Virus genome (UHGV): UHGV-0120185 | Direction: 5' to 3' (one strand) | Length of the DNA stretch: 18,367 bases | Origin: a virus | Translations under genes and position numbers: made by a program | The notes under the pieces: generated by a model | What the model was told of the DNA's origin: nothing | What the model saw: only the letters and a program-made list of their open reading frames with translations | Databases searched by the model: none | In this document: piece by piece, positions 2,915 to 14,588 of the stretch | How positions within the stretch are numbered: the first letter of the stretch is position 1 | Layout: every line of letters begins with the position of its first letter

Positions 2915-3417
2915 CAGCACAACTCCGCAAAGATTCGCGGGCGGCACAGAATGTCAGAGATGGCCCAGCTCACATCACGCCACAAATCCGATGTCTGTAT
3001 ATCCAGAGCGTCCGCCCGGCGGTCGCCCTTGTCCGTTGTGTCTGCATCACGATAACGCTCCAGAATCAGGGCGCGCGTGGCGGTATAAACAGCATTGCGC
3101 CAGTGCCAGAGATTGACGCTTTCTCCGTTAATTACAGGGGCCGGAACATCGGCCAGCGTCTGATGGCCAGCCGCCTGCTGTTCCTGCTGCCACGCTTCCA
3201 GCTCGCGGGTAACGTGTGCCACGGCCCCGGTGGCGGTATGCAGCAGGCGGGAGGTGGTCACACGGCCCGGCAGTCGTACCGCCAGACGCAGCTCACGCAG
3301 CACAATATCCGGCCAGAATGCACCCGCTGAAATACGGGTATCACCATCATCGGTATCGGTGATGTCGTCCTCTGCGGGTCCGGGGTTGGTTCTGGCAACC
3401 ATACTCATGGGGTTCAC
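2914..3417 (-). CDS. L: P2 gpL-like head completion/stabilisation protein
   Basis: 'LADVPAPVINGES', 'ERYRDADTTDKGDRRADALD', 'DLWRDVSWAISDI' align with P2 gpL as recalled. RBS AGGAG 8 nt upstream of ATG at 3417. Confidence 0.8.
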   Translation of the reverse strand: MNPMSMVARTNPGPAEDDITDTDDGDTRISAGAFWPDIVLRELRLAVRLPGRVTTSRLLHTATGAVAHVTRELEAWQQEQQAAGHQTLADVPAPVINGESVNLWHWRNAVYTATRALILERYRDADTTDKGDRRADALDIQTSDLWRDVSWAISDILCRPRIFAELC

Positions 3418-3509
3418 TCCTGAAAAAATCGGGCGGTGGGTGCGCGGTGTAAACGGTCACGGAGTCAAACCGGAACACCGCGCACGCCGCCCGCTGACGG
3501 GGTCAGTCG

Positions 3510-3977
3510 TTAACCGCGCTTCGCCTTCTGCGTCGCGGTGGTTTTTCGTGTTGCAGGCTTCCGCGTTGTCTTTTTACTTTTGCTGCTTTCGTCCTGCGCC
3601 TGCGGTGTGCTGGCATCTTCTGGTGCGGCTGCGGAATCGGCTTTTTTCAGGGCGCGGGAAAGGGTTGCAATCTCGCGTTTCACACCTGCGTTCGGGTTAC
3701 GGCGTTTGATGCCGTCATAACTGCTATTCGTGCGCGCAATTGGCCCGGTGGTGTCCAGGAGGATTTTTTCGCCTTTCTGGTCGGTCACGCCGATCACGTT
3801 AATTCTTTTCGTAAATTCGGTACTTTCCTTTGAGGCGTTTTCAAAACGCTGCTGCACCGCGGGTTCCACGGTAAATCGCGATACCAGTGCAGATACCGGG
3901 ATATTGTTAAGCGACGCCTGCTGCGCCATATAGCAACCCAGCTTGTTGCGGGTAATATCTGACATCACCAGATTCAT
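3510..3977 (-). pseudogene. in-frame fusion of capsid gpN N-terminus with small terminase gpM C-terminus (deletion remnant)
   Basis: Residues ~30-95 ('FTVEPAVQQRFENASKESTEFTKRINVIGVTDQKGEKILLDTTGPIARTN') match the N-terminal region of P2 major capsid gpN. Residues ~105-155 ('AGVKREIATLSRALK...TTRKPATRKTTATQKAKRG') match the basic C-terminal tail of gpM. Only 155 aa, where N plus M normally span about 600 aa. Confidence 0.6.
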
Positions 3978-4000
3978 AAAAAATTTGCTCCTTTGTCTTA

Positions 4001-4837
4001 TCAGAAGTCAGCCAGCTGGTCGGAGGCTGCGCCCGTTGCGGTGAAGCGGTTCTGCGGATCGCCGTCCTGCGTGCGCAGTTTTTCCGTCAGAGCTGTCAGC
4101 TCTGTGGTCAGTGACGTGATTTTCTTGCTGTCCTGCTGATGGCGGGTTTCCAGCACATTAAAACGGTCGATAATGTCGGCCTGTGACGTTGCGACGCCTT
4201 CCACCGCTTCCTGAATACGGGAGAAACTGGCGTCATCCGCTTTGCGGCCACGACCAATAATCCCCATTACGCGGTTAAACCACTGGGTGCCTTCTTCCTG
4301 GCGTTGTTCTGCCATTTCGATGATTTCAGACTCGATGGCTTCGGAGATAAGCGGTGCTTCACCCTGGATACTGTTGAACGTCATCACCGCCTGACGCTGC
4401 TGTGCCGTGAATTTCAGGCGCTCAGTGCCCAGGCTTGCCGGGGTGTCGGTCATCGCCAGCCCGACCAGATAGGCGCGCCCGTTAACGGAGAACTGCGGGT
4501 GCAGTTCGATACTGGAATAGATTTTCTTGCCGTCAGCGACAAGCTGCTTCATGCGCTCGGTCGGTTCGATTTCTGCATACAGCGCAGTACGTCCGGCCAG
4601 CGGGCCTTCCGTAATATCTTCCGTACTCAGCGCGGTGACATCGCCCATTGCGGAAAATTCGCTTGACGGGCATGGCGAGAGATAGTGCTCAACGTTCACG
4701 CGGGCAGCGTAAACATCCGGGTTGAAGTTCTCGGCGGCTTCACGCAGATGTACCGGGCTGATTTCGCGGCCATCAACAGTTGATCCGGAGACAGCCACGC
4801 GAAACTTTTTGCGGGATGTCTTTTTTTCATTAGCCAT
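4001..4837 (-). CDS. O: P2 gpO-like capsid scaffolding protein
   Basis: 'YLVGLAMTDTPASLGTERL' and overall collinearity with P2 gpO as recalled. Start at second Met (4837) with RBS GAGGGG ~9 nt upstream; 278 aa. Confidence 0.85.
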   Translation of the reverse strand: MANEKKTSRKKFRVAVSGSTVDGREISPVHLREAAENFNPDVYAARVNVEHYLSPCPSSEFSAMGDVTALSTEDITEGPLAGRTALYAEIEPTERMKQLVADGKKIYSSIELHPQFSVNGRAYLVGLAMTDTPASLGTERLKFTAQQRQAVMTFNSIQGEAPLISEAIESEIIEMAEQRQEEGTQWFNRVMGIIGRGRKADDASFSRIQEAVEGVATSQADIIDRFNVLETRHQQDSKKITSLTTELTALTEKLRTQDGDPQNRFTATGAASDQLADF

Positions 4838-4991
4838 AGTTTTTGCCCCTCTGACTGGTTCTTCAGTCATGATGGCAAAGCGTAACAGGCTGATACAAAG
4901 GGCTTTTGTTGTAAGAAAACGGCCAGAACAGGGGGTTAAGGAGAACGGTTTCGCGCGCGGGTAATCTTCCTGTAATTACTCAGGGGGAGCA

Positions 4992-6743
4992 ATGATTCAG
5001 GACGCTTTTGTGCGCCAGCGTGCGCGGCAACTTTACTGGCAGGGTTATCCGCCCGCAGAAATATCACGTCTGATGGGAATAAACCCGAACACGATTTATG
5101 CGTGGAAAAAACGCGACCAGTGGGATGAAACGCCACCCGTGCAGCGTGTCACGCAGTCCATCGATGCGCGCCTCATCCAGCTTACTGAAAAACAGAATAA
5201 AACAGGCGGTGACTTTAAGGAAATAGACCTGCTGACCCGGCAGCTTAAAAAGCTGCATGATGGCCAGCCGGATGTGACGGCCGCAGGAAAGAAAGGCCGG
5301 GCGAAAAAACTCAAAAATCATTTCACGCCGGAACAGATTGCCGCACTGCGGGAAAAAATCATCAGCAGGCTGGAGTGGCATCAGCGGGGCTGGTTTGACA
5401 CCCTGACCCTTTGCAGGGAAGCCGGGATACGTAACAGGATGATCCTGAAATCCCGACAGATTGGGGCGACCTGGTATTTTGCACAGGAAGCTCTGCTGAT
5501 GGCGCTGCGTGACGATGTGGCGCAACCTTACCAGCGTAACCAGATTTTTTTGTCTGCGTCGCGTCGTCAGGCGTTCCAGTTTAAAAGCATTATTCAGAAG
5601 GCCGCGGCTGAAGTTGATGTGGAGCTGAAAGGGGGCGATAAAATCATCCTCTCCAACGGCGCAGAGCTGCATTTTCTCGGCACTTCTGCTGCGTCGGCAC
5701 AGTCCTATACGGGCAATTTTTATTTTGATGAATTTTTCTGGGTCAGTCGCTTTGCTGAACTGCGCAAGGTGGCTGGCGCTATGGCAACCCTCAGCGGACT
5801 GCGGCGCACCTACTTTTCCACGCCATCCACCGAAACGCACGAGGCATACGCCTACTGGAACGGCGACCGCTGGAACGAGAAAAAGGCCTCGCATAAACGC
5901 CAGCGTTTTTCTGTGGACTGGAAAACGCTGCATAACGGGCTTATCTGCCCTGACCGGACGTGGCGGCAAATTGTCACGCTGGAAGATGTGGTTAATCACG
6001 GCTGGAAACACACCGATATCGACGAAATTCGTGATGAAAACACCGAAGATGAGTTCCTCAATCTCTATATGTGTGAGTTTGTCCGCGAAGGGGAATCGGC
6101 ATTTAACCTGAATATCCTGATTGGCTGCGGTGTTGACGGATACGACGACTGGAAAGACTGGAAACCTTTTGCTCCCCGCCCGATGGGGAATCGTCCGGTA
6201 TGGATTGGGTATGACGCAAACGGCAGCAGTGGAAACGGCGACAGCGGCGCTGTGTCCGTGGTGGTTCCTCCGGCTGTTCCTGGAGGCCGTTTTCGAACGG
6301 TGGAGACGCGACGCGTTCAGGGGCTGGAGTTTGAAGAACAGGCCAGAGTCATTGAAGAGTTCACGTGTCGCTACAACGTGGAACACATCGGCATTGATGT
6401 GACAGGCGGGAACGGGGAGGCTGTTTATCAGATAGTGAAACGGTTTTTCCCTGCTGCTATTCCGTACACCTTCACGCTGTCATCAAAACGGTCGCTGGTA
6501 CTGAAAATGCTGCAAATAATGCGTGCCGGGCGGTGGGAATACGATCGCGCCGAACGCGAGCTGGTCGCAGCCTTTAACGCCGTGCGTAAGGTGAAAACAC
6601 CGGGCGGCTTTATCACTTACGAAACGGACCGCGCGAGGGGGATCAGCCACGGCGACCTTGCGTGGGCAACCATGCTTGCTGTCATTAACGAACCAATTGG
6701 CGGCGAAGGAGAAAACGAGCGTTTCACGGTTATGGAGTTCTGA
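4992..6743 (+). CDS. P: P2 gpP-like terminase ATPase (large) subunit
   Basis: 583 aa, divergent from O as in P2. RBS GGGGGAG before ATG. Terminase-like nuclease region 'WIGYDANGSSGNGDSGAVSVV'. Confidence 0.9.
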   Translation: MIQDAFVRQRARQLYWQGYPPAEISRLMGINPNTIYAWKKRDQWDETPPVQRVTQSIDARLIQLTEKQNKTGGDFKEIDLLTRQLKKLHDGQPDVTAAGKKGRAKKLKNHFTPEQIAALREKIISRLEWHQRGWFDTLTLCREAGIRNRMILKSRQIGATWYFAQEALLMALRDDVAQPYQRNQIFLSASRRQAFQFKSIIQKAAAEVDVELKGGDKIILSNGAELHFLGTSAASAQSYTGNFYFDEFFWVSRFAELRKVAGAMATLSGLRRTYFSTPSTETHEAYAYWNGDRWNEKKASHKRQRFSVDWKTLHNGLICPDRTWRQIVTLEDVVNHGWKHTDIDEIRDENTEDEFLNLYMCEFVREGESAFNLNILIGCGVDGYDDWKDWKPFAPRPMGNRPVWIGYDANGSSGNGDSGAVSVVVPPAVPGGRFRTVETRRVQGLEFEEQARVIEEFTCRYNVEHIGIDVTGGNGEAVYQIVKRFFPAAIPYTFTLSSKRSLVLKMLQIMRAGRWEYDRAERELVAAFNAVRKVKTPGGFITYETDRARGISHGDLAWATMLAVINEPIGGEGENERFTVMEF

Positions 6744-7789
6744 TGAGCAGAAAAAATAAAAAAGTGCGCATGAGTTCACGCATTGATCTCGCTGATGCGC
6801 TCAGGAAAGAATCATCGCTCAGTGCATTCACATTTGATGGTCCTTATCGCCTGACCGGGCATGACCTGCTGGACAATATGTACTGTGCTGATAACGGGCG
6901 GTGGTATGAAACACCGGTGGACTGGTACGGTCTGGCAAGAGCTGCCCGGCAAACGTCCTGGCATCAGTCTGCGCTTTACTTTAAGCGCAATGTATTACTC
7001 GGTTGCTACATCCCGCACCCGCTGCTTTCCCGGCAGGATTTCTCGGCGCTGGCGCTGGACTGGTTTGTGTTCGGTAACGCATTCCTTGAGCTTCGAAGCA
7101 ATATGCTCGGCGAACCGCTTAAATTACGGCACGCCCTGGCGAAATACATGCGACGCGGAAGCGATCTTGAATCATGGTGGTATGTGCAGGATGGTAAGGA
7201 TGCGTTTCAGTTTCGCCCAGGCAAAGTGTGCCACCTGATGAATCCTGACATTAACCAGGAAATCTACGGCATGCCGGAATATCTTGGCGCATTACTCTCG
7301 GCCAGCCTGTCTCATTCGGCGGACATGTTCAGAAAACTGTATTACGACAACGGATCCCATGCCGGGTGCATCATCTACATCGGTGCAGCGCAGGTAAACC
7401 GCGAAAGCATGGACTCCCTGAAAGAAACGTTACAGGGTGCGCGTGGTGGCGGTGCGTTTAAAAACGTGCTCATTCATGCGCCCAACGGGGGCAAAGAGGG
7501 GGTGCAAATTTTGCCGTTCCAGCAGATCACCGCAAAGGATGAGTTCATGAATGTTAAGGCGGCATCCCGTGATGATGTGCTGGCTGCGCACCGCGTTCCG
7601 CCGCAACTGATGGGGGCGATGCCGGGCGAAAAAAGTGCGTTTGGTGATGTGGAGAAGGCCGCGCGGGTTTACGCAATTAACGAACTGATGCCCGTCATGG
7701 AGGCCATGAAGCACATCAATGACTGGCTTGGCGAAAAGGTGATCCGCTTTAACCCTTACGCACTGTTAGACACCCAGCCCACATCCTGA
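6743..7789 (+). CDS. Q: P2 gpQ-like portal protein
   Basis: 348 aa immediately after P with overlapping TGATG junction. Size and position match P2 Q, reading toward cos. Confidence 0.85.
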   Translation: MSRKNKKVRMSSRIDLADALRKESSLSAFTFDGPYRLTGHDLLDNMYCADNGRWYETPVDWYGLARAARQTSWHQSALYFKRNVLLGCYIPHPLLSRQDFSALALDWFVFGNAFLELRSNMLGEPLKLRHALAKYMRRGSDLESWWYVQDGKDAFQFRPGKVCHLMNPDINQEIYGMPEYLGALLSASLSHSADMFRKLYYDNGSHAGCIIYIGAAQVNRESMDSLKETLQGARGGGAFKNVLIHAPNGGKEGVQILPFQQITAKDEFMNVKAASRDDVLAAHRVPPQLMGAMPGEKSAFGDVEKAARVYAINELMPVMEAMKHINDWLGEKVIRFNPYALLDTQPTS

Positions 7790-7841: not shown

Positions 7842-8213
7842 CTCTCCAGCTCCTGTATCAATCAGATAATTTCACGACGCTTTCCTGCTGATTGCCATCA
7901 TCGACAGTCAGACTCTTACGCAATCCCACCGCGTTGACTGCATGTTCTCGCCGTCTCAGTGCGATTTTGACGGCCTTACCTTTCACCCCATCAAATCAAA
8001 AGCCCTCACGTCTTTTTCACGCTCAGCGTGAGAAATACAGCCATTCTGTTGTATCTCTGCGACATCGTTCAGGGAATGCTATTTACCCCCTGAAACGCGG
8101 GCTGTTCCCCCGTCACCTGCGCGCAGAAAAAACGCGTTTTTTTGTGCACGCACGGATCCCTGACGGATCCAGCCGCCACGCGGGCCGGAAGGGCAAAAAG
8201 TCGTTCAAAAAAA

Positions 8214-8240
8214 TTGTGCAAATTTGTGCACTATTGTGCA
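8214..8240. repeat. three direct TTGTGCA repeats phased at exactly 10 bp
   Basis: TTGTGCA at 8214-8220, 8224-8230 and 8234-8240, read directly. Confidence 0.55.
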
Positions 8241-8250
8241 TTGAAATAAA

Positions 8251-8271
8251 CGCCCTGGAAGAGGGCGTTTT
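8251..8271 (-). terminator. rho-independent-like terminator for the minus-strand accessory operon (possibly bidirectional)
   Basis: Hairpin CGCCCT-ggaag-AGGGCG 14 nt after the stop of the 112-aa gene, with T-rich tracts on both sides. Confidence 0.5.
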
Positions 8272-8280
8272 GGCTCATTT

Positions 8281-8619
8281 CTATAGCTTTGATGCAGGCT
8301 GGGCTAGGTCTCCTTTGATGCCAGTGTTTACAACCTGACAAGCCTCTTTGAGTACCCAGTCAACAGCGTCTTTCCATGCTCCGGTTTCGGCTGGCGGATT
8401 CTCACGCTTTACCAGTTCATAGAATCGTACTGCTCTAACCAGTCCATCTGACGGTTTTGCCTGTAGTGCAGCCTGAGCTATGCGGTATGCCTGGAGCATA
8501 CGGGCGTCGTTGATATCCATTCCGAACGGAATTTCTGATGATTGTGATTCTGCATCTTCAAGCCTGGCAATTTCTTTACGTAAAAAGTATTTCAACTCTT
8601 GTTTTTGTTTTCTGTTCAT
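8281..8619 (-). CDS. hypothetical protein (112 aa), partner of the ClpX-zinc-ribbon-like protein
   Basis: ATG overlaps the upstream gene's stop (ATGA), followed by the terminator. No family recognised. Confidence 0.55.
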
Positions 8620-8948
8620 GCGTTTTTTCCCTTTTTGTCTGTCACTTCTCTCCTGATAATTTCATTGCACAAATCCACGCACTCATTGCAGATGCAAACA
8701 GACGGTCCGGCAATCACCTTTGTGACTTCGTACTGAGATTTATTGCAGAAGCTGCAATAAATCGTCTCCTCGCCTGAAGTCCATGTTTTGCTGGTTTCGC
8801 CAGACATCAGTTGTTTGAGGTCTTTTTCACGACGAAGAACTATCTGGCCACATTCAGCTATTTTTTGGATGTTGACATTTTCTTCTTTCGCCAGCGCTTC
8901 CATCCGCTCAATCAGTCGCTGCGCTTTTTCTCTGTCAATGTGTTGCAT
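8616..8948 (-). CDS. small protein with C-terminal ClpX N-terminal-type C4 zinc-ribbon domain
   Basis: C-terminal '[39 protein letters not shown]' versus ClpX N-domain '[39 protein letters not shown]' as recalled (about 30/40 identical, all four Zn-ligand Cys kept). N-terminal ~60 aa unrelated and helical. RBS AAGGGGG before ATG at 8948. Confidence 0.75.
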
Positions 8949-8982
8949 TGTGTCCCCCTTGTTTATGTTCCCGGATTAAAGT

Positions 8983-9006
8983 CATCAGGGCGGATGCGCC
9001 CTGATG
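8983..9006. promoter_or_regulatory. perfect 10-bp-stem hairpin (CATCAGGGCG-gatg-CGCCCTGATG) between parR and the zinc-ribbon gene
   Basis: Read directly. The arm CGCCCTGAT recurs at 9026-9034 inside the parR 3' end. No U-tract on the coding strand. Confidence 0.35.
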
Positions 9007-9011
9007 TTGTG

Positions 9012-9323
9012 TTATTCGGGAAATAACGCCCTGATATTTCCGGCCATCCGACTGGTTATCTGTGAGGTTGGTACTGGCTGTGACGCGGGGCGTTCTGTCC
9101 TGGTTTGTGTCACTGATAACGCCTCATCGTCAGCCCATGCAGCCAGTCGGTAAGCCTCTGCCGGATTCATTTTCAGAAGTGCCAGCCCGGCCAGAAAAGC
9201 CACACGTTGGCCGCTTTTGCGGGCTTCTGGTGTAAGGCTGTCCAGCCAGGTGCATGCTTCGCCTTCGTTCTTGACGGCGGCGGGCTTCAGATAGAAACTT
9301 ATCCGTCTGGTTGGTGTCGTCAT
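9012..9323 (-). CDS. parR: ParR-like centromere-binding protein (type II partition)
   Basis: 103 aa from internal Met 4 nt after the parM stop, RBS AAGGAG. 'RRISFYLKP...LDSL...RVAFLAGLALLKMNP...NIRALFPE' parallels plasmid R1 ParR as recalled. Confidence 0.7.
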   Translation of the reverse strand: MTTPTRRISFYLKPAAVKNEGEACTWLDSLTPEARKSGQRVAFLAGLALLKMNPAEAYRLAAWADDEALSVTQTRTERPASQPVPTSQITSRMAGNIRALFPE

Positions 9324-9327
9324 TGGT

Positions 9328-10287
9328 TTACTCCTTGTCCATTGCGTACAGCCCATTAACCAGAGCAAACTGTGGCACCCCGTCCGCGATGAAAGTCGCA
9401 TTAACTCCGCAGGCTTCGCGGATAGCGGGTGCCACAATCTCCGCCCCGCCACCGACAACCATCACCCGCCCGTAACCCGAAAAACCCGCCAGCGCGCGGA
9501 TCACTCGTTGTTTCAGTGTTTCTTCCTTTTCACGAATAACCGCCATCAGGCTGTCGTAATGCGCGTCATTGTGGATGTGCTGGCGCAGCCAGGCTTCATC
9601 ATGGCGATGTTCGATAATGGTATTGGCGATGTGGTGACTGGTGCGCATACCGTTAGTGGCCATCACCGACAGTACGGCATCGGCCATCAGAGAAACGCCT
9701 ACGTGTGGATCGCAAAACACCTGGCTGATACCTGCCAGTTGCCCCTGAACCTTTGCCACATCCAGCGTGGTTCCGCCCAAATCCACAATCAGCAGGGATT
9801 CAAACGGACTCATGTCAGCCAGTGCCTTAAAGCCAGCCGGAATGGATTCAGGCATAACCCGCACGTTACGGATAGTGAATGCTTCGCCGTTCTGGTACTC
9901 CACCGGGCGCATAACGTTCGCTTTTTTGCGGTTGATGTTGGCCATGTCCGGCTGTGCGTTTGTGTCGAAATACTCGCTCAGTGGCAGGGTGACAACCACA
10001 TCCACCTCCTGTGGCGTGATGCCTGATTTGACCAGCGCGTGATGAATGGCAATTACATTCACATCGCTGTACTGGTATTGCGTGTCGGTCGTCTGGACAA
10101 ATCGATCGCTGACCGGATCAAAACCATAGCGCACGCCATCAAGCATGTAGTTTGCGGGCTGCATGCCACCGAACGGCGCAGACCATTCCGATTTGAAGCT
10201 GTTCGGGCTGATGGCGTTGCGGCGTTCGCCGTTCTCAGTCCATGCCAGCTTGATGTTGGTGGAGCCGTCGTCGATACAAATTTTCAT
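9328..10287 (-). CDS. parM: ParM-like actin-type partition ATPase
   Basis: 'MKICIDDGSTNIKLAW', 'YQYSDVNVIAIHHAL', 'RKKANV', 'VMPESIPAGF', 'LLIVDLGGTTLDV', 'VMVVGGGAE', 'ALVNGLY' are collinear with plasmid R1 ParM/StbA as recalled. RBS AAGGA before ATG. Confidence 0.9.
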   Translation of the reverse strand: MKICIDDGSTNIKLAWTENGERRNAISPNSFKSEWSAPFGGMQPANYMLDGVRYGFDPVSDRFVQTTDTQYQYSDVNVIAIHHALVKSGITPQEVDVVVTLPLSEYFDTNAQPDMANINRKKANVMRPVEYQNGEAFTIRNVRVMPESIPAGFKALADMSPFESLLIVDLGGTTLDVAKVQGQLAGISQVFCDPHVGVSLMADAVLSVMATNGMRTSHHIANTIIEHRHDEAWLRQHIHNDAHYDSLMAVIREKEETLKQRVIRALAGFSGYGRVMVVGGGAEIVAPAIREACGVNATFIADGVPQFALVNGLYAMDKE

Positions 10288-10316: not shown

Positions 10317-10429
10317 CGTTTACGGGGTTTTTAAATCCCGTTTTTGCCTGTTTTATGCGCGCTTCATATATCGCGGCGCGTTTTTTGCTCATTTACGGGT
10401 TTTGTGAATCCCGTTTCTGTCTGTTTTTT
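10317..10429. repeat. two ~38-bp direct repeats 73 bp apart, candidate parC-like centromere/operator
   Basis: Copy 1 at 10317-10354 (cgtttacggggtttttaaatcccgtttttgcctgtttt), copy 2 at 10390-10429 (catttacgggttttgtgaatcccgtttctgtctgtttttt), ~85% identical. Each holds an ACGGG...CCCGT hairpin. Copy 1 is in the A-parM gap, copy 2 inside the last codons of A. Confidence 0.5.
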
Positions 10430-13186
10430 GTTTCCACTGGTCAGGCTACCCCGCAGCAGGTCTGCTTTGCGGCGGGCGCGTTCAGTGGTTTCACTGATTC
10501 TCTGTGCGTGCTCTGCGTCACGGATGGCGCGCAGCATGTCAGAAAGCACGGTAACGGGGGTTTTCATGGTGTTCTGGTCCTGCTGAAGTGTGGATGCCAG
10601 GCGTGCGGCGGCTTCGGGGTCTGATGCCCCCAGCTGTTCCAGATAGCCGGCGACCGGGTTATGGCGGATCTCCGTGCTGCTTACGCCGTGATTACGGCTC
10701 AGGCGCTGCCAGAGCTGCGTGATTCGGCTGTCCGGGCGGGTATCCGGTTTGCGTACAATTTCAAATCCCTGCGGTGCAATGATGCTGCCGTCAACGTACA
10801 GGCTGCCGCCCCGTAACAGGTGCTGCATCTGCTGTTCACCGATATGCAGGCCGAGAGATTCGGCAGACTCCCGCCATTCTTTAGCGAGTAATTCGTGGTT
10901 ATCAGGCAAAGGCCGCTGCTGTTTGCGGCTCTGTGTCCAGCTCTGCATTTCATCACTGCTGTTTTTTGCCTGTTTATCATGAAGCGAACGCATCAGCGCC
11001 CGGCGTTCGTGCCGTTTCAGTGAGCGCATCCATTCGTTCACTTCAACGCCATCAGGGAGCTGCGGCCACGGTGCTGGCCGTTCTTCCGGCTGTTCTGCCC
11101 CGTTGTTGTTCGTTTCCTGTACACGGGGACAGTTATTGCCACGAGTCCAAGGGGCGGCAGGGCCGCCCTGAAGGTCAAAACCATTTTCGCGGGCGCTGTC
11201 TTCCGCTTCCGGTTTACGTCTTACCAGCTTCCAGTTATCCGGATGCGTGCACACACGGGAGGATTCCCCGATGAGTGGTGACCAGATCCCGTAAATCTGT
11301 ACGCTCTGTTCGCCGTAATCGTTCAGCTCATCTGCGAGGTCGTAGGCGGTGCGAATCAGGTAGTCCTTGCGCGGAACAAGTACGCCACCCTGTTTTTCAA
11401 TGTAGGTGGCAAAACACCCGGCATCAGCGGCAGCAAGAACCGCATCCATTGCGTCATCCTTCAGCCGTTGCGGGCCTTCCGGGCTGCGTGCCATCTGGCT
11501 GGCAAGGCGGCGGAGTTCACGCCACACCTGACGGGAGGGAATGCCAAAGAACTGGAACTGGCGGACCCGGTGAAGGCGCGCCCAGCCGATGGCGCGTTCC
11601 ACGCTCTCGGCCATTGATTTTCCGGTTTCGTGGTCAACGCGTGGTTTGCCTGTTTTCGGGTCGATGCCATCCACGGCCCGGCTGTCCAGGTTTTTTCCGA
11701 TGTAGGTCGCGATATAGCTGGTTGGTGTGCCTTTTGAGCCGTCGACATACTCCGCCTTAAAGCGCGGAGTAATATCATTGCCCAGCTCGTGGCGGTCTTC
11801 CTGAATGGCAATATCGCGGGTGATGGCCACGATGCTGTCGATTTCTTCCGGATGAGCAAAGACCATCATATGCCAGTGCACGGTGCCGTCATGGTGAGGC
11901 TCCACCGTGCGGATGCCATACCAGCGAAGACCGTCGCGGTTCAGTTTTTTGCGGACCGCCGCAAAAAACGTGTTAACCAGGTAATCGCTGGAGTCGCGCA
12001 TGGTGGCCCCGTTCCATCTGGGATTCGGATGACCGTTCTCCGTTGTGGCGTGGTATTTTGACGGGCAGGTGACAGTCAGAAACACCGCTTTGTCGCCACG
12101 GGCTTCAGCCAGAAGTTCCAGCCCCTTCATGGTGGCCATCATTTCTGCCTTACGGTGAACCGGGTTACTTACTCCCGCGTAATACACCGTCTCGAGATCA
12201 ATCGTGAACCCGTCTTCATTTTCCAGCATGAAACTTTTCAGGAAATCGCGTGTTTTCTCGCGCTGTGCGCGAAACTCGCTTAACGCGTCCTGGCTCAGAT
12301 AGGGCGATGTTTTTCTGGAAACCAGACAGGCGGCGCGGAGTTGTTCTTCTCTCCACTCGCAACGTAACAGCCACAGTTTGCGTTTCCACCATTCCGCACA
12401 GGTCAGGCGAAGGATTGCGCCCGGCAGCAGTTCTGTGTCCGGTTCGTGCCTCCGGTCTTTGTCTGTTGTCAGTGCGTCATAATGCGGAGGCATGGCGTGT
12501 AAGTGTAACGCCATGCGGGCCAGCATCTGATACGCCTTCAGCGTTACATCCATGGTCAGCTCGCCATCAGTCGCGCCAAAACCATCGCAGAGTTTTTCGA
12601 AGGTGCTGCTGAACATCGCCGCCGTCATGGTGGCCAGCGTCTGTATCTGGTGTTTGTTGAGTTGCGGCAGGTAAAGCAAATCGTCCAGGCGTTCACGTCC
12701 GGCAAGGGAGCGATAACCCGATGTCAGCCAGCGGTGATCGGTGCGCTCCAGACGTTCGAATATTTTGCGCAGGGTCCCACGCGCATAGCGTTCTGCCTGC
12801 CTGGCGTTTTTTCCTTTCTGACGATCGGCTTCCTGTTTTTTGCGCAGGAAGGAGAGGTGGCGAATAAGCGGATCGCGCAGATAGGACGGCAGCAGGCGCA
12901 GTGAGGCCATGGCCTCATCTACCGCGCCGCGTGCCTGTTTTCTGGCGTCTCCTGCCAGTGTGATTGTTTTGTCCTGTTTTTCCTGTGCGTCCAGGCTTTT
13001 ATTAATCAGGTTGCCCAGCGGCGTGGCGGAGAACGCCGCATCAGCCATTTCCTGGCGGCGCTCGTTCTCTGCCCGGTAGGCATCCAGCCAGGAGGAAAGC
13101 GCGGATTCAGGAGCGGGGATCCCCGTTCCTTCACGCCCCACTGCGTGGCGCGGTTGTTGCCAGTCCCTGATGTACTCTGCCGTCAT
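10364..13186 (-). CDS. A: P2 gpA-like rolling-circle replication initiator (HUH endonuclease)
   Basis: HUH motif 'VHWHMMVF' and twin-tyrosine motif 'SYIATYIGK'. 940 aa, position between early genes and the accessory locus as in P2. Confidence 0.85.
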   Translation of the reverse strand: MTAEYIRDWQQPRHAVGREGTGIPAPESALSSWLDAYRAENERRQEMADAAFSATPLGNLINKSLDAQEKQDKTITLAGDARKQARGAVDEAMASLRLLPSYLRDPLIRHLSFLRKKQEADRQKGKNARQAERYARGTLRKIFERLERTDHRWLTSGYRSLAGRERLDDLLYLPQLNKHQIQTLATMTAAMFSSTFEKLCDGFGATDGELTMDVTLKAYQMLARMALHLHAMPPHYDALTTDKDRRHEPDTELLPGAILRLTCAEWWKRKLWLLRCEWREEQLRAACLVSRKTSPYLSQDALSEFRAQREKTRDFLKSFMLENEDGFTIDLETVYYAGVSNPVHRKAEMMATMKGLELLAEARGDKAVFLTVTCPSKYHATTENGHPNPRWNGATMRDSSDYLVNTFFAAVRKKLNRDGLRWYGIRTVEPHHDGTVHWHMMVFAHPEEIDSIVAITRDIAIQEDRHELGNDITPRFKAEYVDGSKGTPTSYIATYIGKNLDSRAVDGIDPKTGKPRVDHETGKSMAESVERAIGWARLHRVRQFQFFGIPSRQVWRELRRLASQMARSPEGPQRLKDDAMDAVLAAADAGCFATYIEKQGGVLVPRKDYLIRTAYDLADELNDYGEQSVQIYGIWSPLIGESSRVCTHPDNWKLVRRKPEAEDSARENGFDLQGGPAAPWTRGNNCPRVQETNNNGAEQPEERPAPWPQLPDGVEVNEWMRSLKRHERRALMRSLHDKQAKNSSDEMQSWTQSRKQQRPLPDNHELLAKEWRESAESLGLHIGEQQMQHLLRGGSLYVDGSIIAPQGFEIVRKPDTRPDSRITQLWQRLSRNHGVSSTEIRHNPVAGYLEQLGASDPEAAARLASTLQQDQNTMKTPVTVLSDMLRAIRDAEHAQRISETTERARRKADLLRGSLTSGNKKQTETGFTKPVNEQKTRRDI

Positions 13187-14346: not shown

Positions 14347-14588
14347 GCGATATTTCCCAGCTTATACGGTTCAATATGTTCCCCGCATTCTGCGGCATAG
14401 ATCAGCTCGGAAAGTTCGTTAAGTGCATCCAGATCATCAGCGTAAAAAGCCACGTCATACAGACTTCGGATTGCTCTGGTCAATGAGTCACGGGCCGCAC
14501 GTTCAGCATGAGCGCCTGATGCACTTAAGCGAAAATAAAAACGCTCAAGTGCTTTGTTAATGAGAGTTTTATATTCTTTGCCCATCAC
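14343..14588 (-). CDS. hypothetical early-operon protein (81 aa)
   Basis: ORF with RBS AAGGG; GTG/ATG start ambiguity at 14588/14585. Confidence 0.45.
   Translation of the reverse strand: MMGKEYKTLINKALERFYFRLSASGAHAERAARDSLTRAIRSLYDVAFYADDLDALNELSELIYAAECGEHIEPYKLGNIA

Follow-up and report, generated by a model that had tools for sequence, protein, structure and literature searches.

A phased TTGTGCA repeat array as a probable distal sub-site of the cos signal in a P88-like prophage of the P2 family

Introduction

What is a run of three identical heptamers, set one helical turn apart, doing between the portal gene and the accessory cargo of a P2-like prophage? The locus is found in the 18,367-nt virus genome UHGV-0120185 (hereafter the window, i.e. 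the whole stretch of DNA analysed, to whose first letter all coordinates refer unless stated otherwise). An initial annotation of the window had noted three TTGTGCA copies near a presumed cos site and offered three readings of them, namely a recognition array for the terminase, an IHF-type architectural site, and an operator for the neighbouring accessory cassette. As set out below, the comparative evidence from related sequences strongly favours the terminase reading, and the other two did not survive.

How P2-family terminases recognise cos is poorly characterised. The arrangement seen in the window, with a cargo hotspot beside cos, has been described for P2-like phages (PMC9122126). A delimited signal of 160 bp would supply a rule for which helpers mobilise which satellites and defective prophages, its edge would explain why the anti-phage cargo hotspot of P2-like phages starts at one exact base, and it would allow minimal cos cassettes to be designed for cosmid delivery based on P2 and P4. 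This type of cos is present in about one fifth of complete E. coli genomes.

Results

The repeat array

Copies of TTGTGCA follow one another on the + strand at an exact period of 10 bp (8214-8220, 8224-8230 and 8234-8240; the stretch 8213-8240 reads ATTGTGCAaaTTTGTGCActATTGTGCA), and units 1 and 3 of this triple share a longer match (ATTGTGCA). The one-turn phasing reported in the initial annotation is real, a triple exact 7-mer at period 10 having arisen in none of 1,000 shuffles of the window (analytic expectation ~7e-5). The heptamer is not enriched across the window as a whole (six copies observed vs 4.4 expected), and the signal lies in its clustering and phasing, with four of the six copies packed into 100 bp. 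An array of three, as first described, was correct as far as it went but missed a fourth copy and a fixed 72-nt link towards cosN. This fourth TTGTGCA (8142-8148, same strand) precedes the first repeat by 72 nt and is part of the same feature; we refer to it as site 1 and to the triple (TTGTGCA-N3-TTGTGCA-N3-TTGTGCA, 8214-8240, + strand) as sites 2-4.

All four repeats share one orientation and fall roughly on one face of the helix, and A-tracts and T-tracts border sites 1 and 2. Their GTGCA cores start at 8144, 8216, 8226 and 8236, which corresponds to +45, +117, +127 and +137 from the start of the cosN homologue described below. Site 1 is invariant in all relatives, and sites 2-4 have the family consensus TTGYGCR, the third copy being the most variable. 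The spacer between site 1 and the triple (8149-8213, not assigned to a strand) measures 72 nt from the start of site 1 to the start of site 2 and ends in a conserved A-tract (8207-8213).

The host prophage and its N-M deletion

The window is a P88-like (Xuanwuvirus, P2-family) prophage. Upstream of the array it encodes gpO (4001-4870, - strand), an intact large terminase gpP (4992-6743, + strand) with an N-terminal helix-turn-helix domain (residues 6-63, PF06056; window 5007-5180), and the portal protein gpQ (6743-7789, + strand). A cos block (8081-8240, + strand) separates gpQ from the cargo region, an operon on the - strand (8281-10287) next to gpA (10364-13186, - strand). Read along the window, the cargo operon comprises a 112-aa ORF with no Pfam hit (8281-8619), a ClpX-zinc-finger protein (8616-8948), a Plasmid_stab_B/ParR-like protein (9012-9458) and ParM (PF06406/PF21523; 9328-10287), all on the - strand, and its terminator is a strong hairpin (8248-8270, - strand; -13.4 kcal/mol, z -3.5). 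The array thus lies where the initial annotation placed it, between the end of the portal gene and the accessory-operon terminator, and the block as a whole occupies the location of a P2-family cos, with portal gene Q to one side and, to the other, the right-end accessory region next to gene A.

The same annotation stated that the small-terminase gene is deleted, and comparison with P88 bears this out: 1,423 bp are absent, which takes most of M (PF05944) and also most of the capsid gene N. N is lost from about codon 96 and M loses its first ~204 of 266 codons, leaving an in-frame N'-'M fusion ORF (3510-3977, - strand) that joins the first ~95 codons of N to the last 62 codons of M across a junction with an 8-bp overlap (3691-3698). 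A search of 5,426 complete E. coli genomes did not recover this junction in any of them, which marks the lesion as private and probably recent. Because N and M are deleted, the prophage cannot package itself; its cos is intact, and a related helper acting in trans would be its only means of being packaged.

A ParM/partition pair is also annotated in several other P88-like records, and integrating phages of this type with partition cargo may have a plasmid-like state as well.

Limits and conservation of the cos block

A blastn search with a 501-bp query returned 18 phage records, and many of these matches stop at query position 451 (window 8240) or 465. In the nine relatives that were aligned, among them the Enterobacter phage phiT5282H at only 75% identity, none of the four heptamers varies, and homology stops right after repeat 3, each phage carrying different cargo beyond it. 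Of the 5,426 E. coli genomes, 1,147 contain a 121-bp core, and 8240 is again the endpoint of most of 1,136 matches in this species. In an alignment of 31 unique portal-anchored sequences the information content falls from 1.4-2.0 bits before 8240 to ~0.2 bits after it, with peaks at 8099-8124, 8139-8148 and 8214-8240. We therefore delimit the complete cos block, of ~160 bp, as 8081-8240 (+ strand), which is also the sole segment common to the phage lineage and to a satellite island considered below. Between cosN and site 1 the block carries a palindrome (AAAAAACGCGTTTTTT, 8127-8142, no strand assigned) of which a T-run (8139-8143) is kept and the remainder varies by lineage; its RNA fold is not significant (z -1.19).

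Two of the sequences collected depart from this picture. One IMG/VR contig (L208, 12833-12900) diverges 2 nt past the cosN 19-mer into GGTAATGACTCCAACTTATTGATAGTG, which we take to resemble the terminal inverted repeat of an IS1-type element; in that case cosN would have been cut off from the repeats by an insertion. The second is a prophage of Candidatus Symbiopectobacterium endolongispinus (L180, ~3830-3990) with an eroded array, whose spacing is no longer intact and whose site 1 has become GTGCG, the expected outcome of relaxed selection on a dead packaging signal.

The cosN homologue and the layout in P2, 186 and P4

For P2, 186 and P4 the annotation of the 19-nt cohesive ends (cosN) is based on experiment, and the genome ends of all three were rewritten in the orientation of the window. 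A homologue of this cosN, the predicted cohesive-end cleavage region, lies at 8099-8119 (- strand; GGTGACGGGGGAACAGCCC in P2 map orientation), with nick positions placed to within +/- ~2 nt. It is situated 95-115 bp upstream of the triple, in agreement with the suggestion that the array is near a presumed cos. The 19-mer at 8099-8117 (GGGCTGTTCCCCCGTCACC) is identical to the P2 cosN 19-mer at 13 of 19 positions, a figure that rises to 14 of 19 in sister lineages (L152, L160, L170), and sister lineages from Brenneria, Klebsiella and Morganella carry CTTGCTCCCCCGCCTCGCC-type 19-mers 24 nt from site 1, as in P2. Among the relatives 8099-8124 is near-invariant, and the alignment from cosN to the array, including the flanking GCGCGC, is essentially ungapped across P2, 186, P4, the satellite and four P88-type lineages.

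Along this alignment P2, 186 and P4 carry RTGCA, in the form ATGCA, at +43, +115, +125 and +137/138 from the start of cosN. The step from site 1 to site 2 is 72 nt in the window, P2, 186 and P4 alike, and is followed by steps of 10 and 10 nt in the window. The distal array of P2, 186 and P4 reads ATGCAA-N5-ATGCAC-N7/8-ATGCA, and the first two units of the triple conform to RTGCAA-N5-RTGCAC in these three genomes and in the window. Where the window has the palindrome at 8127-8142, the three have a GC-rich inverted repeat followed by TTTTA. Alignment of the cos regions of P2-like phages had been proposed in the initial annotation as a check on the array, and the layout proves to be kept in P2, 186, P4 and hundreds of relatives, those of the P88 type included.

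Two other placements of cosN were considered and dropped, one at 8177-8195 (from the end of the linear record LR595891) and one in the 19-nt stretch that separates GCGCGC from site 1, because the lineages with P2-like 19-mers place the homologue at 8099-8119. LR595891 (LR595891.1) ends at window position 8195/8196 and IMGVR_UViG_2874920711_000009 at 8163/8164, both inside the spacer, and no contig or record ends at the predicted cosN. Although these two ends conflict with the homology-based cosN, we have taken them as arbitrary linearisation points, and the deposited ends of P88-type linear records should not be read as cohesive ends.

The layout in sets retrieved independently of the motif

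A first scan of IMG/VR had demanded the heptamers, and hence three sets were built without the motif. The first comprised 52 GTDB loci retrieved via the portal protein (31-99% identity). A strict pattern, which allowed an inter-pentamer spacer of 65-69 nt, was found in 15 of the 52, and the spacer was always exactly 67 nt. A relaxed four-site layout based on [TC]GC[AG] was present in 33 of the 52, downstream of the portal gene and on the + strand, against a background of 0 matches in 478,813 other bases. The 19 misses comprised six near-misses (one degenerate site or a 1-nt indel), two truncated loci and 11 distant phages. In distant P2-like phages of Shewanella, Pseudoalteromonas and Porphyrobacter, with portal proteins no more than 42% identical, no array was found within 2.5 kb of the portal gene.

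The second set was retrieved with the P88 cosN 19-mer, not with the array pattern, and in it site 1 is invariant and sites 2-4 read TTGYGCR. Retrieval of the third set with the P2 cosN 19-mer only gave 73 unique sequences with 65 distinct spacers, and ATGCA occurred at +43 in 69 of the 73, at +115±1 in 64 and at +125±1 in 53, against a chance expectation of ~0.14 per offset. Identity of the spacers (+48 to +114 in P2, 186 and P4) among these three genomes and the window ranges from 0.18 to 0.31, the exception being 186 and P4 (0.54), so that the sequence of the spacer is at the level of random identity and its length is fixed. Since the motif-independent sets agree on the layout, these comparisons indicate that the array is constrained and that selection maintains its distance to cosN but not the DNA in between.

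Part of this otherwise free spacer (8153-8199) is semi-conserved in P88-type lineages (GCC..CA...GG.C.G, GGGCAAAAA), and a GCGCCAG-N2-4-CTGGCGC type of palindrome occupies the equivalent position in several lineages and in 186 and P4. This palindrome, or the semi-conserved stretch, may be a further sub-site.

Arrays of three to five TTGTGCA-type repeats with a 10-bp period were also observed in unrelated IMG/VR contigs (L038, L025, L052, L058, L041, L046 and L079/L096). In L038 the array (14351-14377 of the contig, - strand) lies 23 nt from the end of the contig and ~37 nt upstream of an HK97-type portal gene, after which come genes for a protease and a capsid protein. The array of L025 (4976-5002, - strand), which has relatives in L052 and L058, follows a terminator near a DUF6291 gene. 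Such arrays may be other packaging sites or iteron sites.

A satellite island that shares only the cos block

Two divergent matches (L016 and L017) fall in a satellite-like island adjoining hpt. In E. coli NCTC9082 the island occupies 3103-5084 and 5533-12089 of L016, next to hpt, and L017 is arranged likewise. Both are near-identical to the window over 8081-8240 and unrelated to it outside. The satellite has a cos of the P88 type with all four heptamers kept, and the differences comprise ~12 nt before site 1 and ~27 nt within the spacer. Its genes encode an integrase, a toprim primase, Ogr/Delta-like and Icd-like proteins and a P2-family capsid protein; no portal or terminase gene was found in the island. 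Homology between P2 and its satellite P4 is likewise located at cos (PMC9122126). A helper and a satellite that share solely the cos block, here 8081-8240 in L016 and L017, are the classical signature of a packaging signal.

The satellite's own capsid gene specifies a major capsid protein of the P2 family (PF05125; 423 aa, with an N-terminal extension of ~120 aa), and the island also encodes a 236-aa protein without a Pfam hit. Between its cos and its integrase gene the island has dense clusters of GGTTACA/TGTAACC, oriented both ways (6330-6620 of L016 and 6290-6580 of L017), which could be replication iterons or arm sites for the integrase.

Discussion

A cosB-like recognition array

Taken together, the position of the repeats, their conservation and the analogy with better known cos sites suggest that they are probably the distal sub-site of a P88-type cos of the P2 family, that is, a cosB-like recognition array contacted by the terminase. 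In window order the unit would consist of cosN, a short palindrome with a T-run, site 1, a spacer of fixed length and sites 2-4. The four direct repeats would dock a multimeric terminase and thereby set its nuclease on cosN, with gpM (PF05944, the small subunit), the helix-turn-helix at the N-terminus of gpP (PF06056), or the two together making the contact. Sites 1 to 4 span ~97 bp and the spacer corresponds to about seven helical turns. The fixed spacer could then mean that ~100 bp of DNA wraps around the terminase complex or forms a loop on it; steps of 10 bp together with a spacer that is fixed in length and free in sequence would fit such wrapping or looping on an oligomer, by analogy with the ring-shaped small terminases.

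As to which subunit may read the repeats, the helix-turn-helix of gpP is more conserved within the GTGCA class than the rest of the protein (77-85% vs 65-77%). Its recognition helix follows NT[IVL]Y[AS]W[KR][KR]RD in 35 distinct GTGCA-class sequences, including a divergent Morganella protein, and reads PTVQSWKQRD in P2. A recognition helix that differs with the class of repeat is a suggestive lead, drawn from two or three independent lineages and confounded by their phylogeny. For gpM (PF05944), a sequence search gave no relative in the PDB.

Alternative explanations

The alternative that fares best, though we consider it unlikely, is that the repeats act within cos in termination or end processing, in the manner of lambda cosQ, or as a polarity element, and not in initial docking. 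Lambda cosB sits on the side that is packaged first, and the repeats of the window are on the right-end side of cosN, with all helper-satellite homology outside cosN on the repeat side. However, four phased direct repeats over ~100 bp resemble a docking site for a multimer, whereas lambda cosQ is a single short element, unlike the array. P2, moreover, packages monomeric circles, so that the same cos would serve both initiation and termination and the distinction may not apply.

That IHF, Fis or a similar architectural protein of the host binds the repeats and bends cos, the terminase having no part in reading them, is an improbable account of the data. The A- and T-tracts beside sites 1 and 2 would suit it, as would the use of IHF by lambda cosB, but the IHF-type site proposed in the initial annotation finds no support in the window, where no match to the IHF consensus WATCAANNNNTTR within one mismatch occurs anywhere in 8081-8245. 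The difference between GTGCA and ATGCA is also systematic between phage classes that live in the same hosts, for which a reader encoded by the phage is the better fit, and the motif class of a satellite is that of its helper lineage.

It is more improbable again that the repeats mark a recombination boundary for exchange of the hotspot cargo, such as the site of a recombinase. Homology does break exactly after repeat 3 in many lineages, and cargo hotspots next to cos are documented (PMC9122126); yet purifying selection on a packaging signal beside exchangeable DNA yields the same sharp break, the constant 72-nt distance that ties the array to site 1 and cosN would have no role, and no dedicated recombinase co-occurs with the array.

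We give very little credence to a transcription signal for the accessory operon, whether operator, promoter or a back-up terminator that shields cos. A weak hairpin on the minus strand (GTGCA-CAAATT-TGCAC, then a T-run) and the P2 old promoter, which lies near the equivalent array, speak in its favour. However, the 5-bp stem of the hairpin is not significant (-7.4 kcal/mol, z -1.25; 27 of 200 shuffles fold as well), there is a strong terminator just downstream (8248-8270), no promoter-like site is found in 8200-8245, and the ATGCA arrays of the P2 type are unable to form the hairpin. Relatives and satellites, in addition, have other cargo or none beside an unchanged array, and the operator suggested at the outset is contradicted by repeats that stay invariant while the neighbouring cargo is replaced in relatives and in the satellite.

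Least credible of these alternatives is a parC centromere of the ParM/ParR-like cargo module (9012-10287): centromeres are phased direct repeats, and ParM and the Plasmid_stab_B protein are encoded ~0.8-2 kb away, but the array also occurs where no par gene is annotated next to cos (phiT5282H, the satellites, P2, 186 and P4), other cargo intervenes between array and par in Chuche, 569R5 and Shae_phiSM, and the position of the array is locked to cosN and not to par. A site for the P2 late-promoter activator (TGT-N12-ACA) was rejected by eye, the array giving ACT in place of ACA and P2-type arrays lacking TGT, and to our knowledge the repeats are a poor match to a DnaA box or a Cox box.

A possible recognition code across the family

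The terminase-recognition reading can be extended, tentatively and with a good deal less assurance than for the window itself, to the P2 family as a whole. The four-site layout would then be a recognition code for P2-type terminases, consisting of a proximal RTGCA, a free spacer of exactly 72 nt and three phased RTGCA, with the length of the spacer reporting one wrap of DNA round the terminase. The ATGCA class (P2/186/P4) and the TTGTGCA class (P88-type) would, on this possible scheme, define separate compatibility groups for packaging between helpers and satellites, the second of which would include a P4-like satellite with its own P2-family capsid gene.

Comparison with known systems

The nearest known counterpart is the cos of P2, 186 and P4. 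As in these genomes, the block of the window lies between portal gene Q and the right-end cargo, contains a homologue of cosN, is shared between helper and satellite, and has a proximal RTGCA 24-26 nt from cosN followed by a 72-nt step to a phased RTGCA triple. It differs in its repeat, which is TTGTGCA (GTGCA core) in the window and ATGCA in P2, 186 and P4, in the distance between sites 3 and 4 (10 nt in the window, 12-13 nt in theirs), and in an A6-CGCG-T7 palindrome that replaces their GC hairpin after cosN. On the portal side, homology between the window and the satellite island also runs on for a further ~18 nt (8081-8098), compared with just ~7 nt between P2 and P4.

A "55-bp core" has been described for the P2-family cos (PMC5694545, PMC3931495). 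By alignment, this core would contain cosN and site 1. The core goes back to Ziermann and Calendar (1990), who reportedly found that ~125 bp, more than the core, is needed, which would be consistent with a requirement for the distal sites. No text on distal phased repeats or on a 72-nt rule was found in the accessible literature, and a prior description is possible. We regard the feature as the P88-type member of the P2-family cos signal, and its family-wide layout of four sites with a fixed spacer as possibly newly described.

The likeness to lambda cosB is one of function and not of homology: in both, short repeated elements lie by the nicking site (here four direct repeats from +45 to +141, adjacent to cosN) and the terminase, which in lambda needs such elements for specific recognition, has two subunits. 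Lambda cosB is built as R3-I1-R2-R1 and is bound by gpNu1 and IHF, with R sites of ~16 bp in mixed orientation and a bend made by IHF, whereas the window has four direct repeats of 5-7 bp, no IHF consensus and a long spacer of fixed length. The side on which the repeats lie relative to the direction of packaging may also differ, and the small subunits are unrelated, that of the window's family being PF05944.

A further parallel is offered by the ring-shaped small terminases of P22, Sf6, SF6, SPP1 and PaP3, with which phased contacts over ~100 bp would fit a wrapping of the DNA. For these phages DNA is proposed to wrap on an oligomeric TerS ring (for the general picture, see PMC9611059 and PMC7672466). 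Unlike these systems, the P2 family has a large subunit with a helix-turn-helix domain of its own.
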